This document shows, one piece after another, positions 1 to 37,280 of a DNA stretch of 39,837 nucleotides (within the stretch, counting starts at the first letter, position 1; each line of letters opens with the position of its first letter). Below the pieces are notes generated by a model, which saw only the letters and a program-made list of their open reading frames with translations, did no database searches and was not told the DNA's origin. The DNA comes from a virus: UHGV virus genome UHGV-0025829; one strand, given 5' to 3'. Both the position numbers and the translations under genes were made by a program.

Positions 1-74
1 ATGAAGTGAACGGTATTTCCCGCGTGGTGTATGACATCAGCGGCAAGCCGCCAGCTACCATTGAGTGGGAATGA
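1..74 (+). CDS. guaA: Host gene 3-prime end (partial CDS), probably GMP synthase C-terminus
   Basis: Frame 3 reads ...EVNGISRVVYDISGKPPATIEWE then TGA at 72..74. I recall this as the GuaA C-terminus; recalled, not verified. Confidence 0.45.
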   Translation, partial: EVNGISRVVYDISGKPPATIEWE

Positions 75-76
75 TT
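60..76. repeat. attL core candidate (ATTGAGTGGGAATGATT)
   Basis: Identical 17-mer recurs at 39565..39581; covers the last codons and stop of the host CDS; integrase gene lies 190 bp to the right. Confidence 0.6.
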
Positions 77-121
77 AACAGCTAACTCATAGCAACTCAT
101 TCCTATTCAGATACTAATTTA

Positions 122-153
122 ACCCTCTGTTTTTACAGAGGGTTTTTGTTTTT
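122..153 (+). terminator. Rho-independent terminator, phage-side copy resembling the host terminator at 39609..39636
   Basis: 9-bp stem ACCCTCTGT/ACAGAGGGT, loop TTTT, then T-tract. Confidence 0.6.
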
Positions 154-209
154 ATGTATTCATTTCTATTCACTCTACACCATATTTTTCGGCGGTACAG
201 GTGACGGTA

Positions 210-224
210 TTACCTTAAAGGTAT
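210..224. promoter_or_regulatory. Operator-type palindrome TTACCTTAAAGGTAT upstream of integrase
   Basis: Matches the recurring TTACCT-N3-AGGTAA motif with one mismatch; about 45 bp upstream of the int start. Confidence 0.45.
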
Positions 225-266
225 ACTCTCATACCGTCATGAAAATGGTTTTTATACGGGTGAATT

Positions 267-1523
267 GTGCTTACCGATACAAAATTAAAAAACCTCAAGC
301 CACAGGACAAACTGTACAAAGTTTCCGATCGTGACGGGCTGTATGTAGCTGTGCTTACGTCAGGTACGGTCTCGTTTCGCTATGACTACCGTATCAACGG
401 TCGCCGCGAAACACTGGTAATCGGGCAGTATGGGCGTGACGGTATCAGCCTGGCAGAAGCGCGAGAAGAACTGATTGCTGCAAAGAAGCTGCTTAAAGCA
501 GGCCAGTCGCCGGCTGCGGCTAAACGTGACGGTATCAAAAAGATTCGTGGTGCCGAGACGTTTGCGGTACATACCGACAGTTATATGAAACACGTCATCC
601 TGGCTGAAAGTACCCGCGCAATGAAGCAGGCGGTGATCGACCGTGACATACTTCCGGTTCTTGGCAACAAAATGATGGCTGAAATTACCACATCGATGGT
701 TCGTGATTTGTGTGACCGGATTGTCGAACGCGGTGGTCGGGCAACAGCAGTACAGGCCAGGGAGATCATCAGCAGCGTATACCGTCACGCCAATGACCGT
801 GGTCATGGTTTGTTTAATCCTGCTGCTGACATTAAACCTTCGTCTATCGCCATATTTAAACCACGAGAGCGAACACTGACACCAGAAGAAATTGGTCTGT
901 TCTTCCGCACGCTGGATGCCATTGGTGCTATGGGCACTATGAAAATGGCTTTAAAGCTGGTGCTTATCACTATGGTTCGTAAAGGCGAATTCACCAATGC
1001 AACGTGGGATGAAATAGATTTTAAAAAATGGACATGGACAATTCCTTCAGACCGCATGAAGGGAAGCCGGGCGCATGTTATTTACCTGCCTAAACAGGCT
1101 CAGGATATATTGGTCGGGTTGCAGATGTGCGCTGGTGGAAGTGAATATCTGGTTCCTGGTCGTTACAATTTCAGGAAGCCATTATCTAATGCCGCGCTGA
1201 ACTCTCTGATCGACAGAACGGTGAAAATAATAAATGAAGATGGTGAGCATATTCAGGACTTCACCGTACACGATATGCGCCGTACAGCCAGTACGTTGTT
1301 GCATGAGGCTGGTTATCCTTCAGACTGGATTGAAAAGGCTCTGGCACATGAGCAGAAAGGTGTGCGCGCCGTATATAACAAAGCGGAATACGCCAGACAG
1401 CGCGCCTACATGTTGCAGCAGTGGTCCGATATGATTGATTCCTGGATTAACGGGGAGCATACGGATCTGATTCCGTTCTCCCCGTCGAAGTTTGAGAGGT
1501 GGATGGAAGGCAGTAATAAATAA
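267..1523 (+). CDS. int: Tyrosine recombinase / phage integrase (P4-like, with N-terminal arm-binding domain)
   Basis: GTG start; N-terminus LTDTKLKNLKPQDKLYKVSDRDGLYVAV is typical of P4-family integrases; C-terminal catalytic region with HDMRRT and Y-containing tail. Confidence 0.85.
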   Translation: MLTDTKLKNLKPQDKLYKVSDRDGLYVAVLTSGTVSFRYDYRINGRRETLVIGQYGRDGISLAEAREELIAAKKLLKAGQSPAAAKRDGIKKIRGAETFAVHTDSYMKHVILAESTRAMKQAVIDRDILPVLGNKMMAEITTSMVRDLCDRIVERGGRATAVQAREIISSVYRHANDRGHGLFNPAADIKPSSIAIFKPRERTLTPEEIGLFFRTLDAIGAMGTMKMALKLVLITMVRKGEFTNATWDEIDFKKWTWTIPSDRMKGSRAHVIYLPKQAQDILVGLQMCAGGSEYLVPGRYNFRKPLSNAALNSLIDRTVKIINEDGEHIQDFTVHDMRRTASTLLHEAGYPSDWIEKALAHEQKGVRAVYNKAEYARQRAYMLQQWSDMIDSWINGEHTDLIPFSPSKFERWMEGSNK

Positions 1524-1525
1524 TT

Positions 1526-2185
1526 CTATCCTTCCTGGACTTTGGTAAGCGTCAGATTTCCGCAGAACACTGCGCCGGTGTCGATGTACATCTGGTTTGC
1601 ATACACCAGTGGGTGATGTGCTGGCGTATGACCGAAGATGAACAAATCGGCACCGGTTATCTCCGAGACAATACCGTCCTGCGCGTCGCTAACCCGCTCA
1701 CGATTCCATATCACCATTTCTTCCGGTACTGGCTTATCGAATGCGTATTCGTTGTGCGGGTAGTCTGCGTGGCAGATGACGACCTTCTTATTGCCGGTAA
1801 CCAGTTCGATAATCATCGGGAGGTTGGTAATCTTTGGCAGAAGGTATTTGAGTTGCACATCCTGCTCAGAATCAAGTTGGTGCCACCATCCACCGCCGTT
1901 TGACATCCAATGTCCGAAACTTCCGCCGTTGACCAGTGCATCCAGCATCATCTGCTCATGGTTGCCACGAACAGCTCGGAACCACGGCATAGTAATCAAA
2001 TCCAGGCATTCGACGTTTTCAGCGCCGCGGTCAACAAGGTCACCAACGGAAATAAGCAAATCGCGCGCCGGGTCGAATGAAACTTTGTCGAGTTCGTTCA
2101 TCAGCAGCGTGTAGCACCCATGCAGATCGCCGACGACGAAGATATTGCACCAGTCATCGCCATTGATGCGTTGATATAGGTTCAT
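1526..2185 (-). CDS. Ser/Thr protein phosphatase (lambda PPase / NinI-like, metallophosphoesterase)
   Basis: Motifs [15 protein letters not shown] and RGNHE; start ATG (MNLYQRING) overlaps the upstream stop as ATGA. Confidence 0.8.
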
Positions 2186-2832
2186 GCTACACGCTCCCGC
2201 CCCTGGTTGTCTGTTGGTGACAGCGGAGCATTGCTGAATGCATTTGTTAATCTGGCAATATCCAACGCGTATCCAGGGTGTAGTTGCACTGCTGGGTCTT
2301 CGCACTGATTACCCCAAACATCGAAGCCATGAGACGACTGGCGGGCGAACAGTTCAATGCGAGAAACATCGCCTAACAATTGCACAAGTTTTTCACGAAC
2401 GACATCTGGTTTTCTTGAATGCTCAAGCCGCGGTGCGGTAAATGACTGAACGATACCTGCATTAATGCGCGGAGGTAGTTTTCCCTTTACTGCAAACAGG
2501 CAATCTTCACTATTGGCGCGAGTCATGTGACCCATACCCATAACCAGTTTATCTGGTTGTCGACTACCACATTTTATCCACGTGAATCCCTTCATGGTCA
2601 TCAGACGGAATCCCCAGGCTTCAACAACTTTTAGTGCTTCGAGTGGTTGTGTTGGCACCCACCACATGGCCAACAGACAGTTTTCATCGGCCAAATCCCA
2701 CACAGGAAGGCGGCAGATATCCAGCACACTCATAACCGGATATTTAAAACCGGCACCGCGATTACCATCTGCGGCTTTGTCCCGGTATACCCAGGGTGGA
2801 TCTGCATAGATTAGTGTGTATTTCTTAGTCAT
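2182..2832 (-). CDS. DNA N6-adenine methyltransferase, MT-A70 family
   Basis: LIYADPPW motif near the N-terminus; GGGGTGG Shine-Dalgarno before ATG at 2832. Confidence 0.75.
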
Positions 2833-3091
2833 AAACCACCCCACAACATCCTATGCCGCTATAGTCGCCACGGCGAAGGCCGTTACCTTTTGTGATACAT
2901 TGGTCCCTGCGAACCGCGATCCTTGCACGCTCAACATCACCAGAAGCAACATCCATACACTGAAGCCAAAGGTTGGCGGCAATGCGGAACTGCCCTTTTT
3001 TCTCTCTTTCAATCGCGCGTTTTTCGATCTCTATCGCCGCAGGAGAAACGGCAACAACCTTTGAAGGGCTGCGCATTGAAACCTTGTTCAT
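2825..3091 (-). CDS. Hypothetical small protein
   Basis: ORF overlapping the MTase start by 8 nt; start uncertain (ATG at 3091 or 3076). Confidence 0.35.
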   Translation of the reverse strand: MNKVSMRSPSKVVAVSPAAIEIEKRAIEREKKGQFRIAANLWLQCMDVASGDVERARIAVRRDQCITKGNGLRRGDYSGIGCCGVVYD

Positions 3092-3233
3092 GTGATATTT
3101 TTCAAGTCTGCTTAACTTTCTCACTTAATCCAACCCTCTCTGAAAATTAATGCCAGCAGATAAAGCCATGCTGAAACAGAGGCCAAGAATAAGTACCATC
3201 ATGACCATTTGCTCCAGTGCCTTAGCAGCGCAC

Positions 3234-3482
3234 TCATGCAGCGTTGCTCACAGGACGATAGACACGTTGCTGAACAGGAGGTTTTTTACCCTGGAACTCT
3301 GCCGGGCTTGCTGCCTGACGTTCATCAAGCCAACGCTCAACTTCATCACGGTTCCATGCGCAGCGTTTATCGGTGATATACCAGCGTTTAGGAAATTCCC
3401 CTGCGCGCTCCATACGGTCGATAGTGCTCCATGACAGTGGAACCACCGCCAGGAGTTCCTTCTTACCTAATGCACCTTTCAT
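3234..3482 (-). CDS. AlpA-family HTH regulator / excisionase-like protein
   Basis: Short protein with LSWSTIDRMERAGEFPKRWYI...WNRDEVERWL pattern typical of AlpA/Xis; good SD (GAGAGGT). Confidence 0.7.
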   Translation of the reverse strand: MKGALGKKELLAVVPLSWSTIDRMERAGEFPKRWYITDKRCAWNRDEVERWLDERQAASPAEFQGKKPPVQQRVYRPVSNAA

Positions 3483-3531
3483 AAATACCTCTCTTGGTTG
3501 CAGTGCGGCGCGCGTGGCGCCGCGGTGGTGG

Positions 3532-4473
3532 TTACATAGATGTTTCGTTTAATTCTTCCCGACGAACGCTGTAAACGTCGGTGGCTTTTGCCAGCAGTTC
3601 GTCATCATCTGAAAGTTTTTGTGCAATGTATTTGTAAGCCTTATCCAGTTCGGAGACAGTGCTGTAATTCATCGCTGCGCTGGTAAAGGCCATCAGCATT
3701 TCTTCTGGATCACGGCTATCCGATTTACGCGTTTGCTCATCAGGCTTTTTCGCTGGTTTAGCGTTGATCAGACTGTTCATTCCCGCAGCAGTGGTCGTTT
3801 GCGGAGTAATGTCTCGCTCAACGCGCGGTGCCGTTTCCTGTAATTCGTCTGGGGTGTAGACGCCCATGATTACGTCAGGACAGTGCAGGCGAGACCAGCG
3901 TTTTGTCGCAAGGTATGCGAGTTGTTGTTTCGGATCACTGGCCCAAAGTGTGGAGTTTCTTACCTGTGCTTGAGACAGCATTAACTCAAGCACTCGAGGT
4001 TGATCCTCGCCCTTCATGGTTGCCCATACGCGAACACCGCAGCCTTCTTCGTCTTTTAGAGTCCAGCCTGGTGCGATATATGGATTGCCGTTTTTGGATG
4101 TTTTCTCAACAAACTTACCGATCACGCGTTCCCACGGCCCAAACCACTCGTAGTTGATGCGATCTTTTGTTGGCGACATCGTTGAGATAACTGCGTTTAC
4201 TAATTGGGCTTCATAACCTAGCGTGCCGTTCACAACATGGGTTTTCTGAGCCACGGCAAACGGGTTCATTCCCCACTGCGCAGCCTGCATTGCCACGGCC
4301 ATGCAATCAGCTGGTTTCCCGGCGAGGTGCGCCGGTACCGTTACGCGGCTTTGCGCCATTACCTCGGCGAATTTCATCAGTTGGTTCAAGCCGTCTGGGC
4401 TGAAAATAGTTGCAGCAGTTCCAGCGATTGCTGTGTCTACTGGTGCGTTGATGTTTGCGATGTCGTTGCTCAT
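3532..4473 (-). CDS. recT: RecT-family single-strand annealing recombinase
   Basis: RecT-like central region (AQWGMNPFAVAQKTHVVNG...); ATGA overlap with the upstream nuclease gene. Confidence 0.75.
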   Translation of the reverse strand: MSNDIANINAPVDTAIAGTAATIFSPDGLNQLMKFAEVMAQSRVTVPAHLAGKPADCMAVAMQAAQWGMNPFAVAQKTHVVNGTLGYEAQLVNAVISTMSPTKDRINYEWFGPWERVIGKFVEKTSKNGNPYIAPGWTLKDEEGCGVRVWATMKGEDQPRVLELMLSQAQVRNSTLWASDPKQQLAYLATKRWSRLHCPDVIMGVYTPDELQETAPRVERDITPQTTTAAGMNSLINAKPAKKPDEQTRKSDSRDPEEMLMAFTSAAMNYSTVSELDKAYKYIAQKLSDDDELLAKATDVYSVRREELNETSM

Positions 4474-5291
4474 ATGTACATATCCTGTTTGCGTGCCCAC
4501 TCAGGGCGTTTAATGATTTCCACACCGCCCCATTCATCATTGATGCGGCATTCGTGATAGGTATTCAGATCCCGGCGGAACAGAGCGTGCCCGGCATCGA
4601 CATCCTGCGCATCCAGCTCGAACACGCGTACCGGATACCGACCACAATCAATGCTTTCGCTCACGGCAAGAAAGAAAAAACCATGCGGCTGACCAGTAAC
4701 CCTCATTGCGCCTTCGCGGTACATTGCGTCCTGCACGTGGTAGCGGAATTCCTCGATGTGGCGTGCAAAACGGTCCATATCTGCAACCTTTTTCACGTCG
4801 ACGATCACGTTGTGCTCGTTCAGCCATTTGTCTGGACGAATTCGGCACAACTCACCCGTCTCTTCATCGTTCCAGTACATTGATGCTTCGCAGTAACCAG
4901 GTGCTTCCAACATCCAGCGTGCCGCCGGGTGAGCCATTGCGCTATCACGCATCAGCTCCAGTTTCCGCCACTGCTCGGCATCAAGTACCGTAATCCCCAT
5001 ATCCGCCACATCACGAAGAAATGCCTCTTCGTCAGCTTTACCTTGTTTCGTCCGACGATCGAATTTCGGTGAAACAATGAAGCGTTTGTCGAACTCTCTA
5101 GGCTCCAGAAGCAGACAGTGCAATGCGGTTCCCATATCCAGTGCAGACTTTTTCTCTTCGTCTTCTGGTGCTGCCTGAACCCATTTAAGAAGCGCCGGAT
5201 TCTTGGCAACCATGTCCAGTTGCGACTTACTCACGCCGTCACCGGCGTGGTAGTCCTCATTGCTGATGTCGAAATAGATGCCAGTATTCAT
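4470..5291 (-). CDS. RecE-like PD-(D/E)xK exonuclease
   Basis: Immediately upstream of and translationally coupled to recT; RPD...VDVKK nuclease motif; N-terminus resembles the RecE C-terminal nuclease domain (recalled). Confidence 0.6.
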   Translation of the reverse strand: MNTGIYFDISNEDYHAGDGVSKSQLDMVAKNPALLKWVQAAPEDEEKKSALDMGTALHCLLLEPREFDKRFIVSPKFDRRTKQGKADEEAFLRDVADMGITVLDAEQWRKLELMRDSAMAHPAARWMLEAPGYCEASMYWNDEETGELCRIRPDKWLNEHNVIVDVKKVADMDRFARHIEEFRYHVQDAMYREGAMRVTGQPHGFFFLAVSESIDCGRYPVRVFELDAQDVDAGHALFRRDLNTYHECRINDEWGGVEIIKRPEWARKQDMYI

Positions 5292-5494
5292 AACTTAACC
5301 TTGTATTCGTTCTGCTTGTTGGAACGGGTTCCATCGTGGAAATATATTGCGCTCCTGGTTACCTCTACCCATTTGCGACGTTCAAGCTCAGCGATGAACC
5401 AAGAAACCTTCGATCTTGAGATACCAAGAATCTTTGCCATATCTCGGATGCTGTGTTTTCCACCTCGCAGCAATGAGAGGAGTGTTGGTTTCAT
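5288..5494 (-). CDS. Small winged-HTH DNA-binding protein
   Basis: 68 aa, DMAKILGISRSKVSWFIAELERRKWV HTH-like segment; ATGA coupling on both sides. Confidence 0.5.
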   Translation of the reverse strand: MKPTLLSLLRGGKHSIRDMAKILGISRSKVSWFIAELERRKWVEVTRSAIYFHDGTRSNKQNEYKVKL

Positions 5495-5790
5495 GCCGCG
5501 TCCCTCTGCCCATCAAGCTGATCAGCCAGATCCCAGCGGGCGATAATTGCCATTGCCTCGCGCCGGTAGGCATCCATTAGTTCTTCGAACTCAGGGCTGT
5601 CTTTAGCGGCCTCCAGTACTTCCTGGCGAACGCCTTTAACTGTTACAACGTCGAAAGTTGATGCCAGTTGATGAAGCCGGATACTCTCAATCAGTTCGAC
5701 TTGTCGGTCATATAGCTGTTCTGACAGGCGGTAGTCCTTGTCGAATTCCAGCATGATTTTTTGAAGATTTTTCTGCTGATTAACGTTCAT
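5491..5790 (-). CDS. Hypothetical early protein
   Basis: 99 aa from ATG 5790 with GGGAGGG SD; coupled to the downstream gene. Confidence 0.5.
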   Translation of the reverse strand: MNVNQQKNLQKIMLEFDKDYRLSEQLYDRQVELIESIRLHQLASTFDVVTVKGVRQEVLEAAKDSPEFEELMDAYRREAMAIIARWDLADQLDGQRDAA

Positions 5791-5807
5791 TATCAGCCCT
5801 CCCATAT

Positions 5808-5945
5808 CTAGTTATCGTTGGCCACATCGCGAGCTTCTTTGCTGACGAAAGCCCACTTAATGCCTTCCTGTAAGGTGCGGAACTTCCAGCTCATGAATCC
5901 GCATGCAGTAACGCAGTACCAACCGTTGATGATTTTCCACTGCAT
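5808..5945 (-). CDS. Small Cys/Trp-rich hypothetical protein (45 aa), first gene of leftward early operon
   Basis: ATG with GAGGT SD; stop overlaps the SD of the next gene; below the 60-aa cutoff of the ORF track. Confidence 0.35.
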   Translation of the reverse strand: MQWKIINGWYCVTACGFMSWKFRTLQEGIKWAFVSKEARDVANDN

Positions 5946-6026
5946 AACTTGTTACCTCGGTCTGTTACCGTTGAGGTAATGATTATGCGTATTTGGTTTG
6001 GTGTCAATAGATATGAGTTAAAAAAA

Positions 6027-6041
6027 TTACCCTTAAGGTAA
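6027..6041. promoter_or_regulatory. Operator palindrome TTACCCTTAAGGTAA (left operator candidate)
   Basis: Perfect TTACC/GGTAA inverted repeat in the leader of the leftward early operon. Confidence 0.6.
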
Positions 6042-6051
6042 TTGTGCAGGC

Positions 6052-6077
6052 AATAAAAAAGCCGCCAGAAGGCGGCT
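6052..6077 (-). terminator. Rho-independent terminator after repressor gene
   Basis: Hairpin AGCCGCC-AGAA-GGCGGCT followed by T-run on the minus strand. Confidence 0.65.
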
Positions 6078-6098
6078 TACTTACTGAAAAATATGATT

Positions 6099-6683
6099 TT
6101 ATTGTTTGTTTTTTTCGTTCTGGTTGATGACAAATTCAATGTAACTTTCGATCTTTGCTTTCTCGGTTTCGGGTAACAATGCGTAGCGCGAGCGGTCATA
6201 GTTGATGGTCGCAGGGTCGTGCGGGTGAATCAGTAATTCATAGCCGTGACGCCCGAATGCGGATGCAACATTCTCCAGGGTGGAAATGGAAACGCTGACC
6301 TCATTGTTTAACAGGCGGCTGATTGTCACCTGGGCGACGCCGGATGCGCGGTGAAGTTTTCCCTGTGTTGAAAGGTCGCGGCTTTCGCTCATCCAGCGTT
6401 CCAGGTTGTGAGCCGCCAGCTGACCTATATCGCTCGGGCCGACAGGCTGAAAACCTTCCTGAGAAAGCGAGCGATCGATATCAAGCCAGTTACGGGGTTT
6501 ATTGGCGGCAGCTTCAATTTTTCGCGCAACCTGGTCGCCGATAACCTTCTTGCCAAGAGCCCAGCGGTTTACCAGATTTGCCTGAGTTCCAAGTTTTTCT
6601 GCCATCCGCGTCTGAACACCATTGAATTCACGGTCGATCAAGTCGTTGAGATTTTGCCTGCGGACGTCCTGGATACTTTTCAT
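6099..6683 (-). CDS. Immunity repressor (CI-like), two HTH domains, no recognisable S24 peptidase domain
   Basis: Divergent from the Cro-like gene with operators between; HTH segments MAEKLGTQANLVNRWALG and ASGVAQVTISRLLNNEVSVSISTL; no Ser-Lys autocleavage motifs seen. Confidence 0.7.
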   Translation of the reverse strand: MKSIQDVRRQNLNDLIDREFNGVQTRMAEKLGTQANLVNRWALGKKVIGDQVARKIEAAANKPRNWLDIDRSLSQEGFQPVGPSDIGQLAAHNLERWMSESRDLSTQGKLHRASGVAQVTISRLLNNEVSVSISTLENVASAFGRHGYELLIHPHDPATINYDRSRYALLPETEKAKIESYIEFVINQNEKNKQ

Positions 6684-6738
6684 TTTCTGGAAAATCGCCT
6701 CATATATGAATCAGTAGATGATTCAATTTAAAGCAATA

Positions 6739-6801
6739 TTACCCAACAGGTAAATGCACCCCATAGGTAACTATCCTTGATTTTTGTTACCTTATGGGTG
6801 A
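6739..6801. promoter_or_regulatory. Right operator cluster: three sites (6739..6753 perfect, 6756..6770 and 6787..6801 half-degenerate) in the divergent promoter region
   Basis: TTACCCAACAGGTAA, GCACCCCATAGGTAA and TTACCTTATGGGTGA between repressor start and Cro-like start. Confidence 0.65.
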
Positions 6802-6837
6802 ATATTTATTATCTGAAATAAATATCAGGCAATAGCT

Positions 6838-7068
6838 ATGAGCGATAACGGACATTTCGATTTCAAAAAGCACTGGCTTGCACTTACTCCGGATGAGCGT
6901 GAAGCCTTCGCACAGGAAGCCGGAACGACGAGTCACTATATCCAGACTCACTTAACAGGTAAGCGCAAAATGCCAGGTAAGGTATTGATGAATGGGCTTT
7001 TTAAAGCCTGTAAAACAAGACAATGGCTGCGCTCAAAAGCAGAACTGGCATACTTCTTCTACTCATGA
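6838..7068 (+). CDS. Cro-like small HTH regulator
   Basis: 76 aa, divergent from repressor, HTH-like segment REAFAQEAGTTSHYIQTHLTGKR. Confidence 0.55.
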   Translation: MSDNGHFDFKKHWLALTPDEREAFAQEAGTTSHYIQTHLTGKRKMPGKVLMNGLFKACKTRQWLRSKAELAYFFYS

Positions 7069-7089
7069 TATCCAGCCACAACCCTCTGT

Positions 7090-7113
7090 AGACCGCCATC
7101 CGGCGGTCTTTTC
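7090..7113 (+). terminator. Rho-independent terminator (tR1-like) after the Cro-like gene
   Basis: Stem AGACCGCC/GGCGGTCT followed by TTTTC. Confidence 0.65.
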
Positions 7114-7123
7114 ATATCTATTC

Positions 7124-7138
7124 GTACCTCAAAGGTAA
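7124..7138. promoter_or_regulatory. Operator-type palindrome GTACCTCAAAGGTAA
   Basis: Motif copy directly after the terminator. Confidence 0.5.
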
Positions 7139-7218
7139 TAAAAAACCAAATATGGTTGATCTTTTTTTTGTGTCAGCACAAAATAACCGTAATCCCAATA
7201 CTAATAACAGGGCTTACC

Positions 7219-7419
7219 ATGGAAATCATTACACGTATTGATGCCGCAAAGCGCGGACTTAAACGCTATTACACCGGAAAACAATGTAAGCACGGACATG
7301 ACAGTGAACGCTGGGTTTACAACGGACACTGTGTTGAGTGCACCATGGAATCAAACCGTCGCATCAGGGCAGAGATTAAGCAGATCATGATTAATTCCTC
7401 CCCACAACACTCAAGCTGA
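7219..7419 (+). CDS. Hypothetical small Cys/His-containing protein (in the position of lambda cII)
   Basis: ATG with SD; 66 aa; C-x-H-x-H...C-x-x-C pattern. Confidence 0.45.
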   Translation: MEIITRIDAAKRGLKRYYTGKQCKHGHDSERWVYNGHCVECTMESNRRIRAEIKQIMINSSPQHSS

Positions 7420-7434
7420 TAGCGGAGATTAATC

Positions 7435-8250
7435 ATGAGCAGACATGCAACAGATTGGGCTTGGGAGACAGATCCAGGCAGCTCATCATTAAAGCTCATA
7501 CTGCTCTCGATGGCTGACAGAGCCGATGAATATAACCTCTGCTACCCCAGCATAGAACGCCTCGTTAAAGACACTTGCCTGAATAAAAAAACCGTGCAGG
7601 CCGGGCTTATATCGCTCATGAAAATGGGGCTTATTTCAGATACCGGAGAGAGAAAGGGAGCGACAAAAAGAGTGCGGGTTTTCTCTCTTAATATAACCAA
7701 AAACGGGAACATTAAAGGCAACCGAGAGGGGGTCAATGAACCCGAAAACGGTAATGTTACCGAAAACGGGAATATACCCAAAAACGGGATGTTGAATGAT
7801 CCCAAAAACGGGATGTTGAATGATCCCAAAAACGGGATCCAGAACCAGTCATATAACCAGTCATTTAACCAAGAGAGGGAGAGCAGGACAAAAAACGGGG
7901 ATTCTGTGCATCATGACCCCGGCGCAAACAACGCCGTGATGAATAACTTTGTTCCTCTTGGTGGGCCAGGGCAATTAGGCAAATTTGTCATGCATGAACA
8001 ATGGCAGCCATCAGATGACTTTCTTCGGAAAAGCTCATTGCAGGGGATCTACCTGGACAGTCTGCCAACGGCACAGGAACTTGCAGAGTTCAGAATTTAC
8101 TGGATGGCTGAGGGTAAGGCATACCATCAGGCACAGTGGGAGCAGAAGCTGGCAAGGCGGCTGCAGATTAGCAGACAGAAGCAATCAACATTACCTGATA
8201 ACAACGTTCCGCACTGGAACAGCCCTGAAGCATGGGAGGATTTCTTGTGA
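7435..8250 (+). CDS. Replication initiator (O-like) with N-terminal winged-helix domain and iteron-bearing linker
   Basis: N-terminus LKLILLSMADRADEYNLCYPSIERLVKDTCLNKKTVQAGLISLMKMGLI resembles phage replication-protein HTH domains; tandem repeats inside the gene. Confidence 0.6.
   Translation: MSRHATDWAWETDPGSSSLKLILLSMADRADEYNLCYPSIERLVKDTCLNKKTVQAGLISLMKMGLISDTGERKGATKRVRVFSLNITKNGNIKGNREGVNEPENGNVTENGNIPKNGMLNDPKNGMLNDPKNGIQNQSYNQSFNQERESRTKNGDSVHHDPGANNAVMNNFVPLGGPGQLGKFVMHEQWQPSDDFLRKSSLQGIYLDSLPTAQELAEFRIYWMAEGKAYHQAQWEQKLARRLQISRQKQSTLPDNNVPHWNSPEAWEDFL
7696..7839 (+). repeat. Iteron array (about six copies of CCRAAAACGGKA at 18 to 24 bp spacing); candidate origin of replication
   Basis: Copies at 7696, 7741, 7759, 7777, 7801 and 7825; two 24-bp units are identical; encodes the PKNGMLND repeats. 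Confidence 0.6.
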
Positions 8251-9032
8251 ACAACGTTTTTACCGCGATACAAAACCGTGACGGAGAAGCCCTTTCTCGC
8301 ATGTCAGGTTATGAGCATCAGTACACCAACAATGACAACGTGGTGAACATGTCAGCAGAGAGGCTTGTTGATGCCCTTTTCAAACAGCTGAAACAACTGT
8401 TTCCGGCGGCAGTGGTAACCAACCTGAAGACGCCAGAGCAGGAAGTTGCTGCAAAACAGCAGTGGATTGCTGCGTTTGCCGAAGGGGGGATCCGAACCCG
8501 TGAACAGGTTTCTGCTGGTATGCGCCACGCCCGCGCCAGTGAGTCTCCGTTCTGGCCGTCGCCAGGGCAATTCATCAAGTGGTGTAAAGACAGCAAGATG
8601 GTTCTTGGCGTCACCATTGACGATGTGATGGCGGAGTTTCACCGGTACAGCAAGGAAAAAAGTTTATATCCTGGTGGTCCCGAAAGATTCCCGTGGCGGC
8701 ATCCGGTTATGTACTGGGTCGTATGTGATACCCGCCGTGCAATGTATCAGCGCCAGCTTAGCGAGATTGAGGTTGAGAAACACGCGCGCAGGCTGCTCGA
8801 TGATTGGGCGAAAAAGGTGGCTTCCGGACAGCAGATACCCGATCCGGTGATCAGCATACAGGCAAAGTCAGAGCCCATGAGTACACCTCCGGACACAGGG
8901 AGAGACGTTTACCATCCACCAGGGCGAAGTTTCGGGTGCATGCCTAACGCCGCCACCCTTGGGGGAATAACACCGGCGCAGTGGCTGATGGAGGAATACA
9001 GGCGGGGAAAGGCGGCAGGATTTATCAAGTAA
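8232..9032 (+). CDS. Replication protein P-like helicase loader
   Basis: Position after the O-like gene; segment AGMRHARASESPFWPSPGQFIKWCK resembles lambda P as recalled; start may be ATG 8232 or GTG 8247. Confidence 0.5.
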   Translation: MGGFLVNNVFTAIQNRDGEALSRMSGYEHQYTNNDNVVNMSAERLVDALFKQLKQLFPAAVVTNLKTPEQEVAAKQQWIAAFAEGGIRTREQVSAGMRHARASESPFWPSPGQFIKWCKDSKMVLGVTIDDVMAEFHRYSKEKSLYPGGPERFPWRHPVMYWVVCDTRRAMYQRQLSEIEVEKHARRLLDDWAKKVASGQQIPDPVISIQAKSEPMSTPPDTGRDVYHPPGRSFGCMPNAATLGGITPAQWLMEEYRRGKAAGFIK

Positions 9033-9069: not shown

Positions 9070-9146
9070 TTACCTGATGGGTAACAAAATATTCTAAACT
9101 CTATTGATTTCGTGTCTTATGTGGTTTTTAATTACCTCAGAGGTAA
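9070..9146. promoter_or_regulatory. Two operator palindromes (9070..9084 TTACCTGATGGGTAA; 9132..9146 TTACCTCAGAGGTAA)
   Basis: Both in the 117-bp gap before the 9150 gene; the second overlaps its SD. Confidence 0.55.
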
Positions 9147-12114: not shown

Positions 12115-12129
12115 TTACCATAACGGTAA
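12115..12129. promoter_or_regulatory. Operator palindrome TTACCATAACGGTAA upstream of terminase small subunit (plus degenerate copy 12133..12147)
   Basis: Perfect half-sites 21 bp before the terS ATG. Confidence 0.55.
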
Positions 12130-12149
12130 CAATTACCAGGGTGGTTATT

Positions 12150-15274: not shown

Positions 15275-15289
15275 TTACCTGAAAGGTAA
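15275..15289. promoter_or_regulatory. Operator palindrome TTACCTGAAAGGTAA upstream of the virion operon
   Basis: Perfect motif copy about 90 bp before the 15380 start. Confidence 0.55.
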
Positions 15290-33017: not shown

Positions 33018-33032
33018 TTACCTTTAAGGTAA
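33018..33032. promoter_or_regulatory. Operator palindrome TTACCTTTAAGGTAA
   Basis: Perfect motif copy abutting the SD of the 33005 gene. Confidence 0.55.
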
Positions 33033-34078: not shown

Positions 34079-34093
34079 TTACCTCAAAGGTAA
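34079..34093. promoter_or_regulatory. Operator palindrome TTACCTCAAAGGTAA
   Basis: Perfect motif copy 32 bp downstream of the small antirepressor-paralog gene. Confidence 0.55.
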
Positions 34094-34458: not shown

Positions 34459-34473
34459 TCACCTGAAAGGTAA
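34459..34473. promoter_or_regulatory. Operator-type palindrome TCACCTGAAAGGTAA
   Basis: One mismatch in the left half; between the LexA box and the tailspike start. Confidence 0.45.
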
Positions 34474-34577: not shown

Positions 34578-37280
34578 ATGACGGTCTCAACCGAAGTTGA
34601 CCACAACGAATACACAGGTAACGGCGTTACGACATCATTTCCTTATACCTTTAGGGTTTTCAATAAATCTGATCTGGTAGTGCAGGTGATTGACCCTGAC
34701 GAGAATATCACTGTGCTGGCTCTTGATACTGATTACACGGTGACGGGGGCTGGAGGATATACTGGCGGGAATGTTGTGCTGATGTCCCCGCTGGCCAACG
34801 GATGGCAGATTTCTATCTCGCGTGACCTTCCAGTTACCCAGGAGACTGACCTACGCAACCAGGGGAAGTTCTTCGCAGAAGTGCATGAAGATGCGTTCGA
34901 CAAGCTGACCATGCTGATCCAGCAGTGCTTCAGCTTTCTCCGACTGGCGCTGCGCAAGCCGTCGTTCATCGCTAACTATTACGACGCGCTCAACAACCGC
35001 ATTCGTAACCTGCGTGACCCGTCACAGGAACAGGATGCGGCCACAAAGAATTATGTTGATGGTCAGATTGTTGACAACACCAATGCATGGAAAGCCGCGG
35101 ACGTCGTTCTTGATAATAAAATTGACAGCAATTTTCGGCGCACTCTTAGGGTTCCTGAGAGCAATATCCAAGTATTGCCTACCATAGATGCAAGAAAGAA
35201 GAAATTATTCGCCTGGGATGATTCAGGAAATCCAATTTCTGTACTTCCTGAATCAGGATCTGCGTCTGATGTTCTTATTGAGTTAGCTTCCAGTTATGGT
35301 TTTAGCCTTATCGGGCAGGCTACGTATTCGCAGATCCGTAATTTCACAGGATCAGGTAACTCAATAATGTGCTGCGGTTGCGAAACACTTCTGGATGGTG
35401 GTCAGGGCATGTTCGATCAGGTTCCTGGTGGGGCAGTTATGACCACTCCAGACGATGGCTGTGTATTTATTCGCGATACTATTGGGCGGTTATGGAAACG
35501 CCGTTATGAGGGAAATGAGATCCTGATGGCATGGGCCGGGGCTAAAAGCCTGAAACAAACTTCGGAACCGCAGGACCCGGCCTTTAGAAAGTGCCTTCAG
35601 GCCGCTGCCTCTTTGTCTGAGTCAGGCTATCCGCAATCTATTATCCGGGGGCTGGACAACGCCACCACATACCTTGCTGAAAAGCACCATATCCGCTGCG
35701 GTAACTTCCCGGAGTACATGGCGTGGAAACTTCCACCTGACGGCGGCGGCCGGCGTTTCGGTATTAAAGGGACGTGGGCTCAGGGGTTAGGTGCCGGTTG
35801 GTTTGTCGTACAGGCTAACCATCCGCTGTTCGATTTCACAATCGATAATACCGGCATTGATTTCAATCTGGATGCGTATACCGATGAAGAAATCAAAGTC
35901 CTCGTCGAAGACAACTATATTTTACGTCTGGAGGCGATGGTAAATGCCCCGGAATTTAATGTTCATGCAGGCAACCACCCGGGGACTGTACTTTACAGCC
36001 TCGGTAAATCTGATTATTCAGCGGTAACCGCACAGTGGCCTGATTTGACTACAGTGCTTCCGTCTATCCAGAACGTGGGCAAAGCGGCGTTTAATATTAA
36101 GCACTGCGGCAGGGATTTCCTGCTGAAGAACTGCGGTGCGGGTATGGGGCATTTCCACTCCGTCTGGACACAGGATAACTCTCAGCCGGGATATATTTAT
36201 TCCTGTTACGACCTGACGTTGACCTATGAGGACTACGTCCCCCATACAGAAGAACGCGGGGGGCTTATTTTCGAAGCGTGCGGGACCCTGTCTCTTGAAA
36301 ATATCCTGACCGGTGCGGGAGGCGTCGGGCATTTATGCATCTGGGACTGTCGAAATGTGACCATCAACAAGCACGTCTCGATATGCGGCGCACCTACCTA
36401 CGCGCAGTCGAACCCGAATCTGTATGCCGTGGAAATCTGTAACTCTGAGCTGGCTGTCTATGGTGTGCATGCCCAGGGCTCTGGCAAGTTTATGCGTATC
36501 GGCTTTAACTCACGCGTGACGTTCTACCACACGACGGCGTGGGACATTGCGCAGATGATTCTGGGTACCAATGACCTGAGTCTACTGAAGTATCGTGGTC
36601 AGCGAGCTGCGGTCCTTAACGACCCTATTAAAGTATTCCTTGAATCTGGATTTGTTCAGTCTGCGAATACTGCAGATAAGGGCTGGCCTTGCCAGCCGCT
36701 GATCGTGTTTGATGAAACAATCGGTGGTGATTTCCAGCTGTTGTTCAACCTCGAGGCAAATAATAACCACTCAGGATACGATACCCAGCCTGAGGCGTTA
36801 CTTGCGCTGATAGATATTCGATCTACCAGTCCTAATGGCGAGGTTGTCTTGGGTGAGCAGTCAAAACTGGAAGGTAATACGACAAACTACGTTGTGCGGC
36901 TGGCGAATAAAAACCAGCTCAAGGACGTATTTACTCGCAAAACTAACTTTGTTCGCATCCGGTATACGGATGATAACTCACAGTCTTCCTTTGCTTTGAG
37001 GCATGCTAATCACCCACTTCAAGGTACGGTTGTTGGACGTAACGCGTCCTACTCATATCCATATAAGCGTCCTGGCTTGTACAGCGTCAAAATCACTATT
37101 CCATCCGGTGGTGGATCTTTTTCTGTAACGCATAACGGATTCACGATTTATGAACAGGACCAGCCTGGAATTCATCGTGTACTTATTGATCTGAGATTCC
37201 AGGAAACCGTGCAGATCACTATTAACGGTGGCGAAAACGTCACTATGACAAACGCCGAATGGCGATATTATGTGGGGTAG
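34578..37280 (+). CDS. Tailspike / tail fiber with T7 gp17-like N-terminal adaptor domain and beta-helix-type receptor-binding body
   Basis: 900 aa; N-terminus YTGNGVTTSFPYTFRVFNKSDLVV resembles podovirus tail-fiber N-termini; GGAG SD. Confidence 0.75.
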   Translation: MTVSTEVDHNEYTGNGVTTSFPYTFRVFNKSDLVVQVIDPDENITVLALDTDYTVTGAGGYTGGNVVLMSPLANGWQISISRDLPVTQETDLRNQGKFFAEVHEDAFDKLTMLIQQCFSFLRLALRKPSFIANYYDALNNRIRNLRDPSQEQDAATKNYVDGQIVDNTNAWKAADVVLDNKIDSNFRRTLRVPESNIQVLPTIDARKKKLFAWDDSGNPISVLPESGSASDVLIELASSYGFSLIGQATYSQIRNFTGSGNSIMCCGCETLLDGGQGMFDQVPGGAVMTTPDDGCVFIRDTIGRLWKRRYEGNEILMAWAGAKSLKQTSEPQDPAFRKCLQAAASLSESGYPQSIIRGLDNATTYLAEKHHIRCGNFPEYMAWKLPPDGGGRRFGIKGTWAQGLGAGWFVVQANHPLFDFTIDNTGIDFNLDAYTDEEIKVLVEDNYILRLEAMVNAPEFNVHAGNHPGTVLYSLGKSDYSAVTAQWPDLTTVLPSIQNVGKAAFNIKHCGRDFLLKNCGAGMGHFHSVWTQDNSQPGYIYSCYDLTLTYEDYVPHTEERGGLIFEACGTLSLENILTGAGGVGHLCIWDCRNVTINKHVSICGAPTYAQSNPNLYAVEICNSELAVYGVHAQGSGKFMRIGFNSRVTFYHTTAWDIAQMILGTNDLSLLKYRGQRAAVLNDPIKVFLESGFVQSANTADKGWPCQPLIVFDETIGGDFQLLFNLEANNNHSGYDTQPEALLALIDIRSTSPNGEVVLGEQSKLEGNTTNYVVRLANKNQLKDVFTRKTNFVRIRYTDDNSQSSFALRHANHPLQGTVVGRNASYSYPYKRPGLYSVKITIPSGGGSFSVTHNGFTIYEQDQPGIHRVLIDLRFQETVQITINGGENVTMTNAEWRYYVG

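Follow-up and report, generated by a model that had tools for sequence, protein, structure and literature searches.

A very probable early-left operon in a phiV10/epsilon15-like Escherichia coli prophage, with a constant methyltransferase position and an exchangeable terminal gene

The virus genome UHGV-0025829, whose whole stretch of 39,837 nucleotides (nt) is referred to here as the window, carries between positions 5945 and 1526 a leftward chain of genes that extends from behind a prophage repressor gene to a convergent integrase gene. Among its products are a RecE-like exonuclease, a RecT annealing protein, an AlpA-type regulator, a PerC-family protein, an MT-A70 adenine methyltransferase and a Ser/Thr protein phosphatase. 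The features of this locus, from the repressor gene to the integrase gene, are the following.

6099–6683, minus strand: prophage repressor of 194 amino acids (aa) with two helix-turn-helix (HTH) domains (Pfam HTH_3; homologue of the SPC32H repressor, PDB 5D50, E = 4e-42, residues 1–190).
6059–6078, minus strand: intrinsic terminator of the repressor gene, an 8-base-pair (bp) GC-rich stem followed by a T run; phiV10 has a terminator annotated at the same place.
6027–6041, no strand assigned: operator-like palindrome TTACC-N5-GGTAA, an exact copy of the motif, upstream of the -35 hexamer.
5979–6007, minus strand: pL-like sigma-70 promoter-like site (TTGACA, 17-nt spacer, AATCAT) with 10/12 consensus matches, the best of the region scanned.
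5965–5979, no strand assigned: operator-like palindrome TTACC-N5-GGTAA, an exact motif match abutting the -10 hexamer.
5808–5945, minus strand: 45-aa first gene, in which a nonsense mutation (E46*) shortens a conserved 50-aa protein (phiV10 p39 / epsilon15 gp37; phrog_898, E = 1.9e-38 for the 50-aa form).
5491–5790, minus strand: 99-aa helical protein (phiV10 p38 / epsilon15 gp36; phrog_856, E = 7.7e-55).
5288–5494, minus strand: 68-aa MarR-like winged-helix protein, an inserted cargo gene (Pfam MarR_2/HTH_24) with an ATGA overlap on either side.
4470–5291, minus strand: RecE-like PD-(D/E)XK 5'-3' exonuclease, nuclease domain only (Pfam DUF3799, E = 5e-23; phrog_412, exonuclease VIII).
3532–4473, minus strand: RecT single-strand annealing protein (Pfam RecT, E = 2.2e-44; phrog_561), its ATG overlapping the RecE stop codon as ATGA.
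3505–3523, minus strand: GC-rich hairpin with a 7-bp stem and no T tract in the 49-nt gap between the RecT and AlpA genes (-17.3 kcal/mol, z = -1.7, weak).
3234–3482, minus strand: AlpA-family excisionase/transcriptional regulator (Pfam Phage_AlpA, 24.2 bits, cutoff 21; phrog_66, 'excisionase and transcriptional regulator').
3121–3237, minus strand: remnant of a 38-aa membrane-protein gene (phiV10p35 / epsilon15 gp32), recognised by alignment with phiV10 and epsilon15; intact form phrog_17484.
2825–3124, minus strand: PerC-family protein of 99 aa with a GTG start (Pfam PerC, PF06069, 30.7 bits, cutoff 22.6; profile positions 5–50 of 90).
2182–2832, minus strand: orphan MT-A70 N6-adenine methyltransferase of 216 aa with a DPPW motif (Pfam MT-A70, E = 7.6e-22).
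1526–2185, minus strand: lambda-type (NinI-like) Ser/Thr protein phosphatase, the terminal cargo gene (PDB 1G5B, E = 1.3e-99; phrog_246).
267–1523, plus strand: P4-type tyrosine integrase, convergent with the chain; an open reading frame (ORF) annotated as integrase in H10407 and phiV10.

The DNA of this early-left stretch is 99.9% identical over 4.7 kb to the guaA-adjacent prophage of the enterotoxigenic E. coli (ETEC) strain H10407, in which every gene of the stretch is annotated by RefSeq. Of 5426 complete E. coli genomes, 647 gave some match to the stretch, and in 294 of these the match covers at least 80% of it. DNA identity to Escherichia phage phiV10 (NC_007804, genus Uetakevirus) is about 98%, and the window, phiV10, epsilon15, SPN1S and 11 prophage loci agree in the order of their genes, starting with the repressor and ending with the convergent P4-type integrase. 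All ten operon products fall in existing phage families of the PHROGs database, two of them families without an assigned function, and an Rfam scan of positions 1–9000 returned no match near any gathering score. The region is thus an ordinary, already annotated and already known early operon of a phiV10/epsilon15-type E. coli prophage. Up to about 8.5 kb the window differs from ETEC H10407 by only 7 single-nucleotide polymorphisms (SNPs) and it diverges from there on; because the agreement ends at that point, the window prophage is a mosaic relative of the H10407 element and not the same element.

The likeness to phiV10 p32–p39 and epsilon15 gp29–gp37 extends to the 50-aa and 99-aa proteins, exonuclease, RecT, hairpin, AlpA-like protein, 38-aa membrane protein, PerC-like protein, methyltransferase, cargo and integrase, as well as to the repressor type and operator region. 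Unlike these phages, the window has an additional MarR-like gene between the 99-aa gene and recE and nonsense mutations in two small genes, and its RecE and RecT are separate ORFs, whereas the phiV10 record fuses them. Epsilon15, for its part, has a YqaJ-type exonuclease, and its PerC-like gene is separated from the methyltransferase gene by an additional small gene. The terminal cargo also differs, being a lambda-phosphatase homologue in the window, a DUF1382 protein in phiV10 and a 60-aa 'transacetylase repressor' in epsilon15.

An initial annotation, made from the letters of the window alone, had described the chain as eight tightly coupled genes with five ATGA start/stop overlaps. The ORF listing and a direct reading of the minus strand from 5945 to 1526 gave nine open genes and one 12-codon remnant; the coordinates and gene content had been read correctly, and all five overlaps are there, at 5494–5491, 5291–5288, 4473–4470, 3237–3234 and 2185–2182, with that at 3237–3234 leading into the remnant. 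The PerC and MT-A70 genes share a further, 8-nt overlap, ATGACTAA, at 2832–2825, and in relatives with an intact small membrane-protein ORF this ORF overlaps the PerC gene as GTGA. Pfam and PDB matches bore out the assignment of the phosphatase, the MT-A70 enzyme and the RecE-like/RecT pair. The two genes described as HTH or hypothetical proteins without an assigned function instead belong to families known in Pfam and PHROGs, namely the PerC family and the AlpA-type excisionases/regulators, and the supposedly unannotated 45-aa gene is the nonsense allele of a conserved 50-aa protein that is annotated in both H10407 and phiV10. As to tight coupling, the overlaps are real, but they are no denser than in the rest of the H10407 prophage: 4-nt overlaps occur at 4 of 8 same-strand operon junctions and at 8 of 35 junctions elsewhere (Fisher p = 0.19). 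The baseline was taken from the RefSeq annotation of the H10407 prophage and is an approximation, since past about 8.5 kb the window no longer follows H10407.

The repressor encoded immediately upstream is presumed, from its homology and position, to be the controller of the operon. The motif TTACC-N5-GGTAA occurs in 15 copies in the window, compared with 0.68 expected by chance; two exact copies flank the promoter-like site, and epsilon15 has repressor-binding sites annotated in the interval matching these operator-like palindromes. No intrinsic terminator was found on the minus strand from the promoter-like site (6007–5979) to 1526. These features support the proposal of a leftward early operon. 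Across the window, the motif lies at 210–224, 5965–5979, 6027–6041, 6739–6753, 6787–6801, 7124–7138, 9070–9084, 9132–9146, 12115–12147, 15275–15289, 33018–33032, 34079–34093, 34459–34473 and 35993–36007, clustering at the pL/pR region, with other sites scattered across the prophage; the scattered sites suggest that the Rep-type repressor may have further targets beyond pL/pR. Kim and Ryu, in their 2013 work on SPC32H, reportedly found that repressors of the Rep type are inactivated by an antirepressor and not by RecA-mediated cleavage.

In its overall plan the locus resembles the lambda pL operon, which is likewise a repressor-controlled leftward early operon with a recombination system, an excision factor and non-essential accessory genes towards int. 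It differs from lambda in having RecE/RecT in place of Exo/Bet, in the placement of int on the opposite strand in convergent orientation, and in having a two-HTH repressor of the SPC32H Rep type instead of CI. No homologue of the N antiterminator or of Gam was recognised in the window operon.

The methyltransferase matches PF05063 with 78.5 bits against a cutoff of 23.9 and carries the motif IYADPPW at residues 8–14, of which A10, P12 and W14 are invariant and D11 and P13 nearly so among 14 homologues. The nearest solved relatives are the ciliate MTA1 and METTL3. The enzyme had been called an orphan, and this stands: since no restriction endonuclease lies beside the gene, its neighbours being the PerC-like gene and a phosphatase gene of the PPP family, the MT-A70 enzyme has no cognate restriction partner, and the sole nuclease in the operon is the RecE-type recombination exonuclease.

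Among better-studied enzymes it is most like M.EcoGV and M.EcoPA8orf6770P of Stx2a phages (Stx, Shiga toxin), which share the int-proximal early location and a start codon overlapping the end of the upstream gene; identity to the enzyme of Stx phage PA8, M.EcoPA8orf6770P, is 85% over the 180-aa core, DPPW included. In contrast to the Stx2a-phage arrangement, the C-terminal tail of the window enzyme is unrelated, with only 5 identities in 36 aligned columns, the upstream gene is PerC-like and not PNB-2, and the downstream gene encodes the phosphatase and not DUF1382.

We then compared what occupies the interval between the PerC-like gene and int. In the 11 loci found through three different PerC-like proteins of the window's subfamily, a DNA methyltransferase was always present: MT-A70 in 6, a Dam enzyme of PF05869 in 3 and a Dcm+Dam fusion in 2. 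As phiV10, epsilon15 and SPN1S also have a methyltransferase in this position, one was present in all 14 epsilon15-like loci or genomes read, be it of MT-A70, Dam-type, Dcm+Dam or unclassified kind. The methyltransferase function is a constant of the operon, and the family that supplies it is exchangeable. The interval is itself a gene-exchange hotspot in epsilon15-like prophages (loci L167–L177 and L259 in our numbering), where it also holds genes for DUF1317, NinX, DUF4406, a DGQHR-domain protein and several uncharacterised products; SPN1S has the DGQHR protein together with a methyltransferase.

The gene that follows behaves differently. In 64 close loci, defined by a methyltransferase at least 95% identical to that of the window, the next gene encodes DUF1382 in 44, a phosphatase in 18 and another product in 2, and the 4-nt overlap with the methyltransferase stop codon is kept in 64/64 whatever the cargo. 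The phosphatase is optional, swappable terminal cargo, one of at least three alternatives; because the cargo is exchanged among these close loci, phosphatase and methyltransferase are not a co-selected pair. The enzyme class of the phosphatase is clear from its sequence: 145 of 217 residues (67%) are identical to lambda phosphatase (NinI/orf221, 1G5B) without gaps, and the metal-binding motifs GDLHG, GDLVDRG and GNHE are all present (D20/H22, D49/D52/R53 and N75/H76), with CHADYP and GHTP also conserved. The location differs, since NinI is encoded in the nin region of the rightward operon of lambda and its homologue here is the last gene of the leftward operon, beside int. The integrase stop codon lies 2 nt from that of the phosphatase (1521–1528), with no terminator between the two. 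Because these convergent stops are so close and unterminated, read-through from the early-left promoter would yield antisense int RNA; epsilon15 has RNase III sites annotated around int.

As for the target of the methyltransferase, REBASE gives GATC as the specificity of the MT-A70 family of Stx2a phages. Overproduction of the highly similar M.EcoGV leads to GATC methylation in vivo (PMC10810198), and this enzyme has been tabulated as a GATC Dam homologue (PMC6602927). DNA methylation is favoured for the window enzyme because PNB-2 is absent, the tail is unrelated and the gene is exchanged for Dam and Dcm+Dam enzymes in sister prophages. By homology, then, the enzyme probably methylates DNA, at GATC. 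The phosphatase and the methyltransferase may serve in host takeover or anti-restriction, as was proposed initially.

The E46* change in the first gene is a SNP relative to H10407 at 5810 (stop codon at 5808–5810), and the gene is intact in 57/57 close relatives that carry it. The ATG of the following 99-aa gene, at 5790, is preceded by a GGGAGGG Shine-Dalgarno sequence. Its product has no Pfam match, and its AlphaFold2 model consists of two long helices of low confidence (predicted local distance difference test score, pLDDT, 65; predicted template modelling score, pTM, 0.31), too poor for a fold search; the family is shallow, with members all at least 75% identical. The position of the gene prompts no more than a guess at a Gam- or Abc-like anti-RecBCD role. 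The MarR-like gene is rare: just 2 of 62 close relatives have it, and both phiV10 and epsilon15 lack it.

The RecE-like protein aligns with the C-terminal domain of RecE (PDB 3H4R) at E = 9e-79, including the D..DVK motif, and its gene is followed by that of the RecT annealase with an ATGA overlap at 4473–4470, the arrangement of the RecET pair of the Rac prophage. The RecE of Rac has an N-terminal part of about 600 aa that is lacking here, the window protein being the nuclease domain of about 270 aa only. No close solved relative of the RecT protein was found. An exonuclease of the RecE type is encoded in 45 of 62 close relatives, and epsilon15 and several relatives have a YqaJ-type exonuclease in that position. 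When phiV10 (locus L002, 5071–5141) was compared with the window (4440–4510), the RecE-RecT 'fusion' of the former was traced to an A run, 20 nt from the ATGA junction on its upstream side, that is one A longer in phiV10; the difference is either a real frameshift or a sequencing error.

At the position of the hairpin between the RecT and AlpA genes, epsilon15 has a 'stem-loop; transcriptional pausing' annotation. The AlpA-like gene shares its region with the P4-type integrase gene, and a role in excision is predicted for it from its family. In the adjoining membrane-protein remnant, whose ATG overlaps the AlpA stop codon as ATGA, a GGA to TGA change at 3201–3199 (codon 13) leaves 12 codons; this ORF is intact in 59 of 61 relatives and interrupted in 2.

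Taken together, we consider it very probable that a phiV10/epsilon15-like podovirus prophage (Uetakevirus) beside guaA has its early-left (pL-type) operon in this region, with a methyltransferase that most likely acts on phage DNA and a phosphatase carried as swappable cargo. By homology with SPC32H, the Rep-type two-HTH repressor of the lysogen would silence the operon by binding the TTACC-N5-GGTAA operators that flank the promoter. Derepression would then give a single terminator-free transcript that starts at about 5979, runs through the whole phosphatase gene and continues antisense into int, and along which the short overlaps (ATGA, GTGA and ATGACTAA) would couple the translation of successive genes. 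The RecE-type exonuclease and RecT annealase would serve phage recombination, the AlpA-type excisionase/regulator would work with the convergent P4-type integrase, and the other products would comprise two small proteins, an optional MarR-like protein, a membrane protein inactivated here and a PerC-family regulator. The methyltransferase would methylate phage DNA, probably at GATC, and so pre-empt restriction or serve phage DNA metabolism.

The only point of this region that looks new is the repeated adjacency of PerC-like genes to phage adenine methyltransferase genes. The PerC-like gene is annotated as encoding 83 aa in H10407 (RefSeq) and 88 aa in phiV10. We read its product as 99 aa from the GTG at 3124 because epsilon15, which has an ATG at the same position, conserves the N-terminus and because phrog_868 matches residues 1–99 of 99. 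Like the PerC/Pch regulators of enteropathogenic and enterohaemorrhagic E. coli (PF06069), it has a central helical PerC domain above the Pfam threshold, but it belongs to a 99-aa phage subfamily with its own N-terminal extension and a C-terminal YSGIGC..VVYD motif, which is confined to Uetakevirus-like phages (36 phage records). We know of no link between this phage subfamily and regulation of the locus of enterocyte effacement.

One rival explanation unites the PerC-like gene and the methyltransferase gene in a functional two-gene module, in which the PerC-like protein would be a dedicated regulator or accessory factor and not an independent transcription activator. To place the pair in context, 160 loci with relatives of the methyltransferase were fetched and the upstream gene was classified in 166, earlier reference loci included, with lineages clustered at 85% identity; the resulting counts are sampled from the methyltransferase side and give no unbiased rate of methyltransferase neighbours for PerC genes. 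The gene upstream of MT-A70 usually overlaps it by 1 to 8 nt and comes from many families, of which PerC-domain genes are the commonest: one is directly adjacent (gap of at most 20 nt, usually overlapping) in 7 of 48 MT-A70 lineages and lies within 1.5 kb in 3 more. The adjacency moreover occurs in two unrelated contexts, the int-side early-left operon (the window and L055) and a position after the replication genes of lambdoid prophages. A second methyltransferase family is represented by E. coli K-12 prophage CPS-53, where a YfdM-type gene is kept beside yfdN in 74 of 80 YfdN relatives from viral contigs and has its full-length, 217-aa form in 68, although these 80 loci are near-identical and therefore not independent. 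YfdM, which is not an MT-A70 enzyme, is a methyltransferase in truncated form; it has an NPPY motif and resembles a PF05869 Dam protein in blastp. There is also a natural in-frame PerC/MT-A70 fusion of 297 aa (P0003), which, however, would be explained by the loss of 1 nt from the T run that precedes the methyltransferase ATG and may be an assembly error.

Set against a functional module, 38 of the 48 MT-A70 lineages have no PerC-like neighbour, and in epsilon15-like phages one to three unrelated genes (DUF1317, NinX, DUF4406, the DGQHR protein) can separate PerC from the methyltransferase. The C-terminal tail of the enzyme, considered as a possible contact with an upstream partner, varied independently of the gene upstream: one long tail is shared by enzymes encoded behind PerC, behind DUF1382, behind a 203-aa protein, behind a protein resembling S-adenosylmethionine (SAM) methyltransferases and behind others, and PerC also precedes short-tailed enzymes. 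Tight linkage and a conserved order of modules could explain the adjacency without any functional link. We therefore regard it as doubtful that PerC proteins, whether alone or fused to a winged helix as in YfdN, constitute a conserved two-gene module with orphan phage adenine methyltransferases of both the MT-A70 and the YfdM-like Dam type, and no less doubtful that the window pair is a unit of this kind. Our literature search, which found no paper on a PerC-methyltransferase link, was a poor one, being swamped by the word 'percent'.

Several details of these neighbourhoods were recorded alongside. In nine lambdoid loci (L022, L024, L027, L028, L032, L064, L066, L070 and L074, at about 3000–4160) a PerC-domain gene that follows the replication genes overlaps the MT-A70 gene; in 7 of the 9 it is fused to a winged helix (142–170 aa), the hosts belong to several enterobacterial genera, and MT-A70 is followed by LexA-like and RusA-like genes. 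In CPS-53 (L178, 6113–6882), YfdN is a fusion of a winged helix and PerC whose gene has a 1-nt overlap with yfdM. The P0003 cluster has three member sequences, all from read-archive assemblies, and a joint alignment of PerC proteins with P0003 gave nothing usable, as MAFFT placed the PerC homologues on the methyltransferase part at 15–23% identity. A DUF1382 protein often adjoins MT-A70 on either side (L003 and L005, Stx phages; L002, phiV10; L151–L153), following it in phiV10 and the Stx2a phages and preceding it, with a 4-nt overlap, in other prophages.

Returning to the early-left operon with a methyltransferase acting on phage DNA, some of the evidence weighs against this reading. The promoter-like site is no more than a match to the consensus. 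The window has slightly fewer GATC sites than expected, with 160 observed and 213 expected, a frequency that points neither way, and we rejected it as an uninformative clue to specificity. This copy may be drifting, given the nonsense mutations in two of its small conserved genes. Lastly, Gong et al. found the purified PA8 enzyme, M.EcoPA8orf6770P, almost inactive on DNA in vitro; bound 1:1 to PNB-2, a 143-aa winged-helix protein encoded by the upstream gene with a 4-nt overlap, it prefers 16S ribosomal RNA (rRNA) and 30S subunits (PMC10810198).

These last data raise an alternative in which the window enzyme is not a DNA methyltransferase: like that of PA8, it would be the catalytic subunit of an enzyme that methylates 16S rRNA and tunes translation and prophage induction. 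The close identity of the catalytic cores agrees with it, as does the lack of an obvious target-recognition domain beside the MT-A70 catalytic domain. However, no PNB-2 partner gene lies upstream of the window methyltransferase, where the PerC-like gene stands instead. PNB-2 as a divergent PerC-type protein was considered and rejected, with an hhalign probability of 0.2% and no Pfam PerC domain in PNB-2; the comparison, of a 3-sequence PNB-2 alignment with a 7-sequence winged-helix+PerC alignment, both shallow, is a weak negative. The tail of about 27 aa that has been proposed to contact PNB-2 and to be required for the holoenzyme is not conserved, sister phages have bona fide DNA methyltransferase families (PF05869 Dam, Dcm+Dam) in the same slot, and M.EcoGV methylates GATC in vivo. 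The authors of the rRNA assignment state, moreover, that they did not identify the modified base (PMC10810198). We judge an rRNA target for the window enzyme improbable. Equally hard to sustain is the proposal that the operon is, in this copy, a remnant in decay with genes no longer of use to the phage: the two nonsense mutations would fit it, as the first gene has a stop in 0 of 57 relatives and the membrane-protein ORF is interrupted in 2 of 61, but all seven larger ORFs and both HTH genes are intact and share 98–100% identity with their counterparts in plaque-forming phages, among them phiV10 and vB_EcoP_ZX5, and the promoter, operators and overlaps are preserved.

For the early-left operon reading, two consequences follow for work on the methyltransferase. 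A search of the lysogen methylome for a new motif, which had been suggested as a check, cannot decide whether the enzyme is active, because the lysogen should keep the operon repressed and because the motif predicted for the enzyme, GATC, is one that host Dam already methylates. Likewise, since the partner gene and the tail are both missing in the window, the published 16S rRNA assignment of the Stx-phage enzyme is not simply transferable to it.

As it stands, this is a textbook-style early operon already present in RefSeq genomes and sequenced phages, and in that respect it matters little. Its int-proximal end, with a constant methyltransferase position followed by a variable cargo position, is a convenient place to look for accessory genes. 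Were the link between PerC and methyltransferases to prove functional, it would hint at what PerC/Pch-type regulators do for phages; if the two genes do form a module, the 8-nt-overlapping pair of the window would be one functional unit, and the PerC/Pch virulence regulators may have an origin in phage biology.

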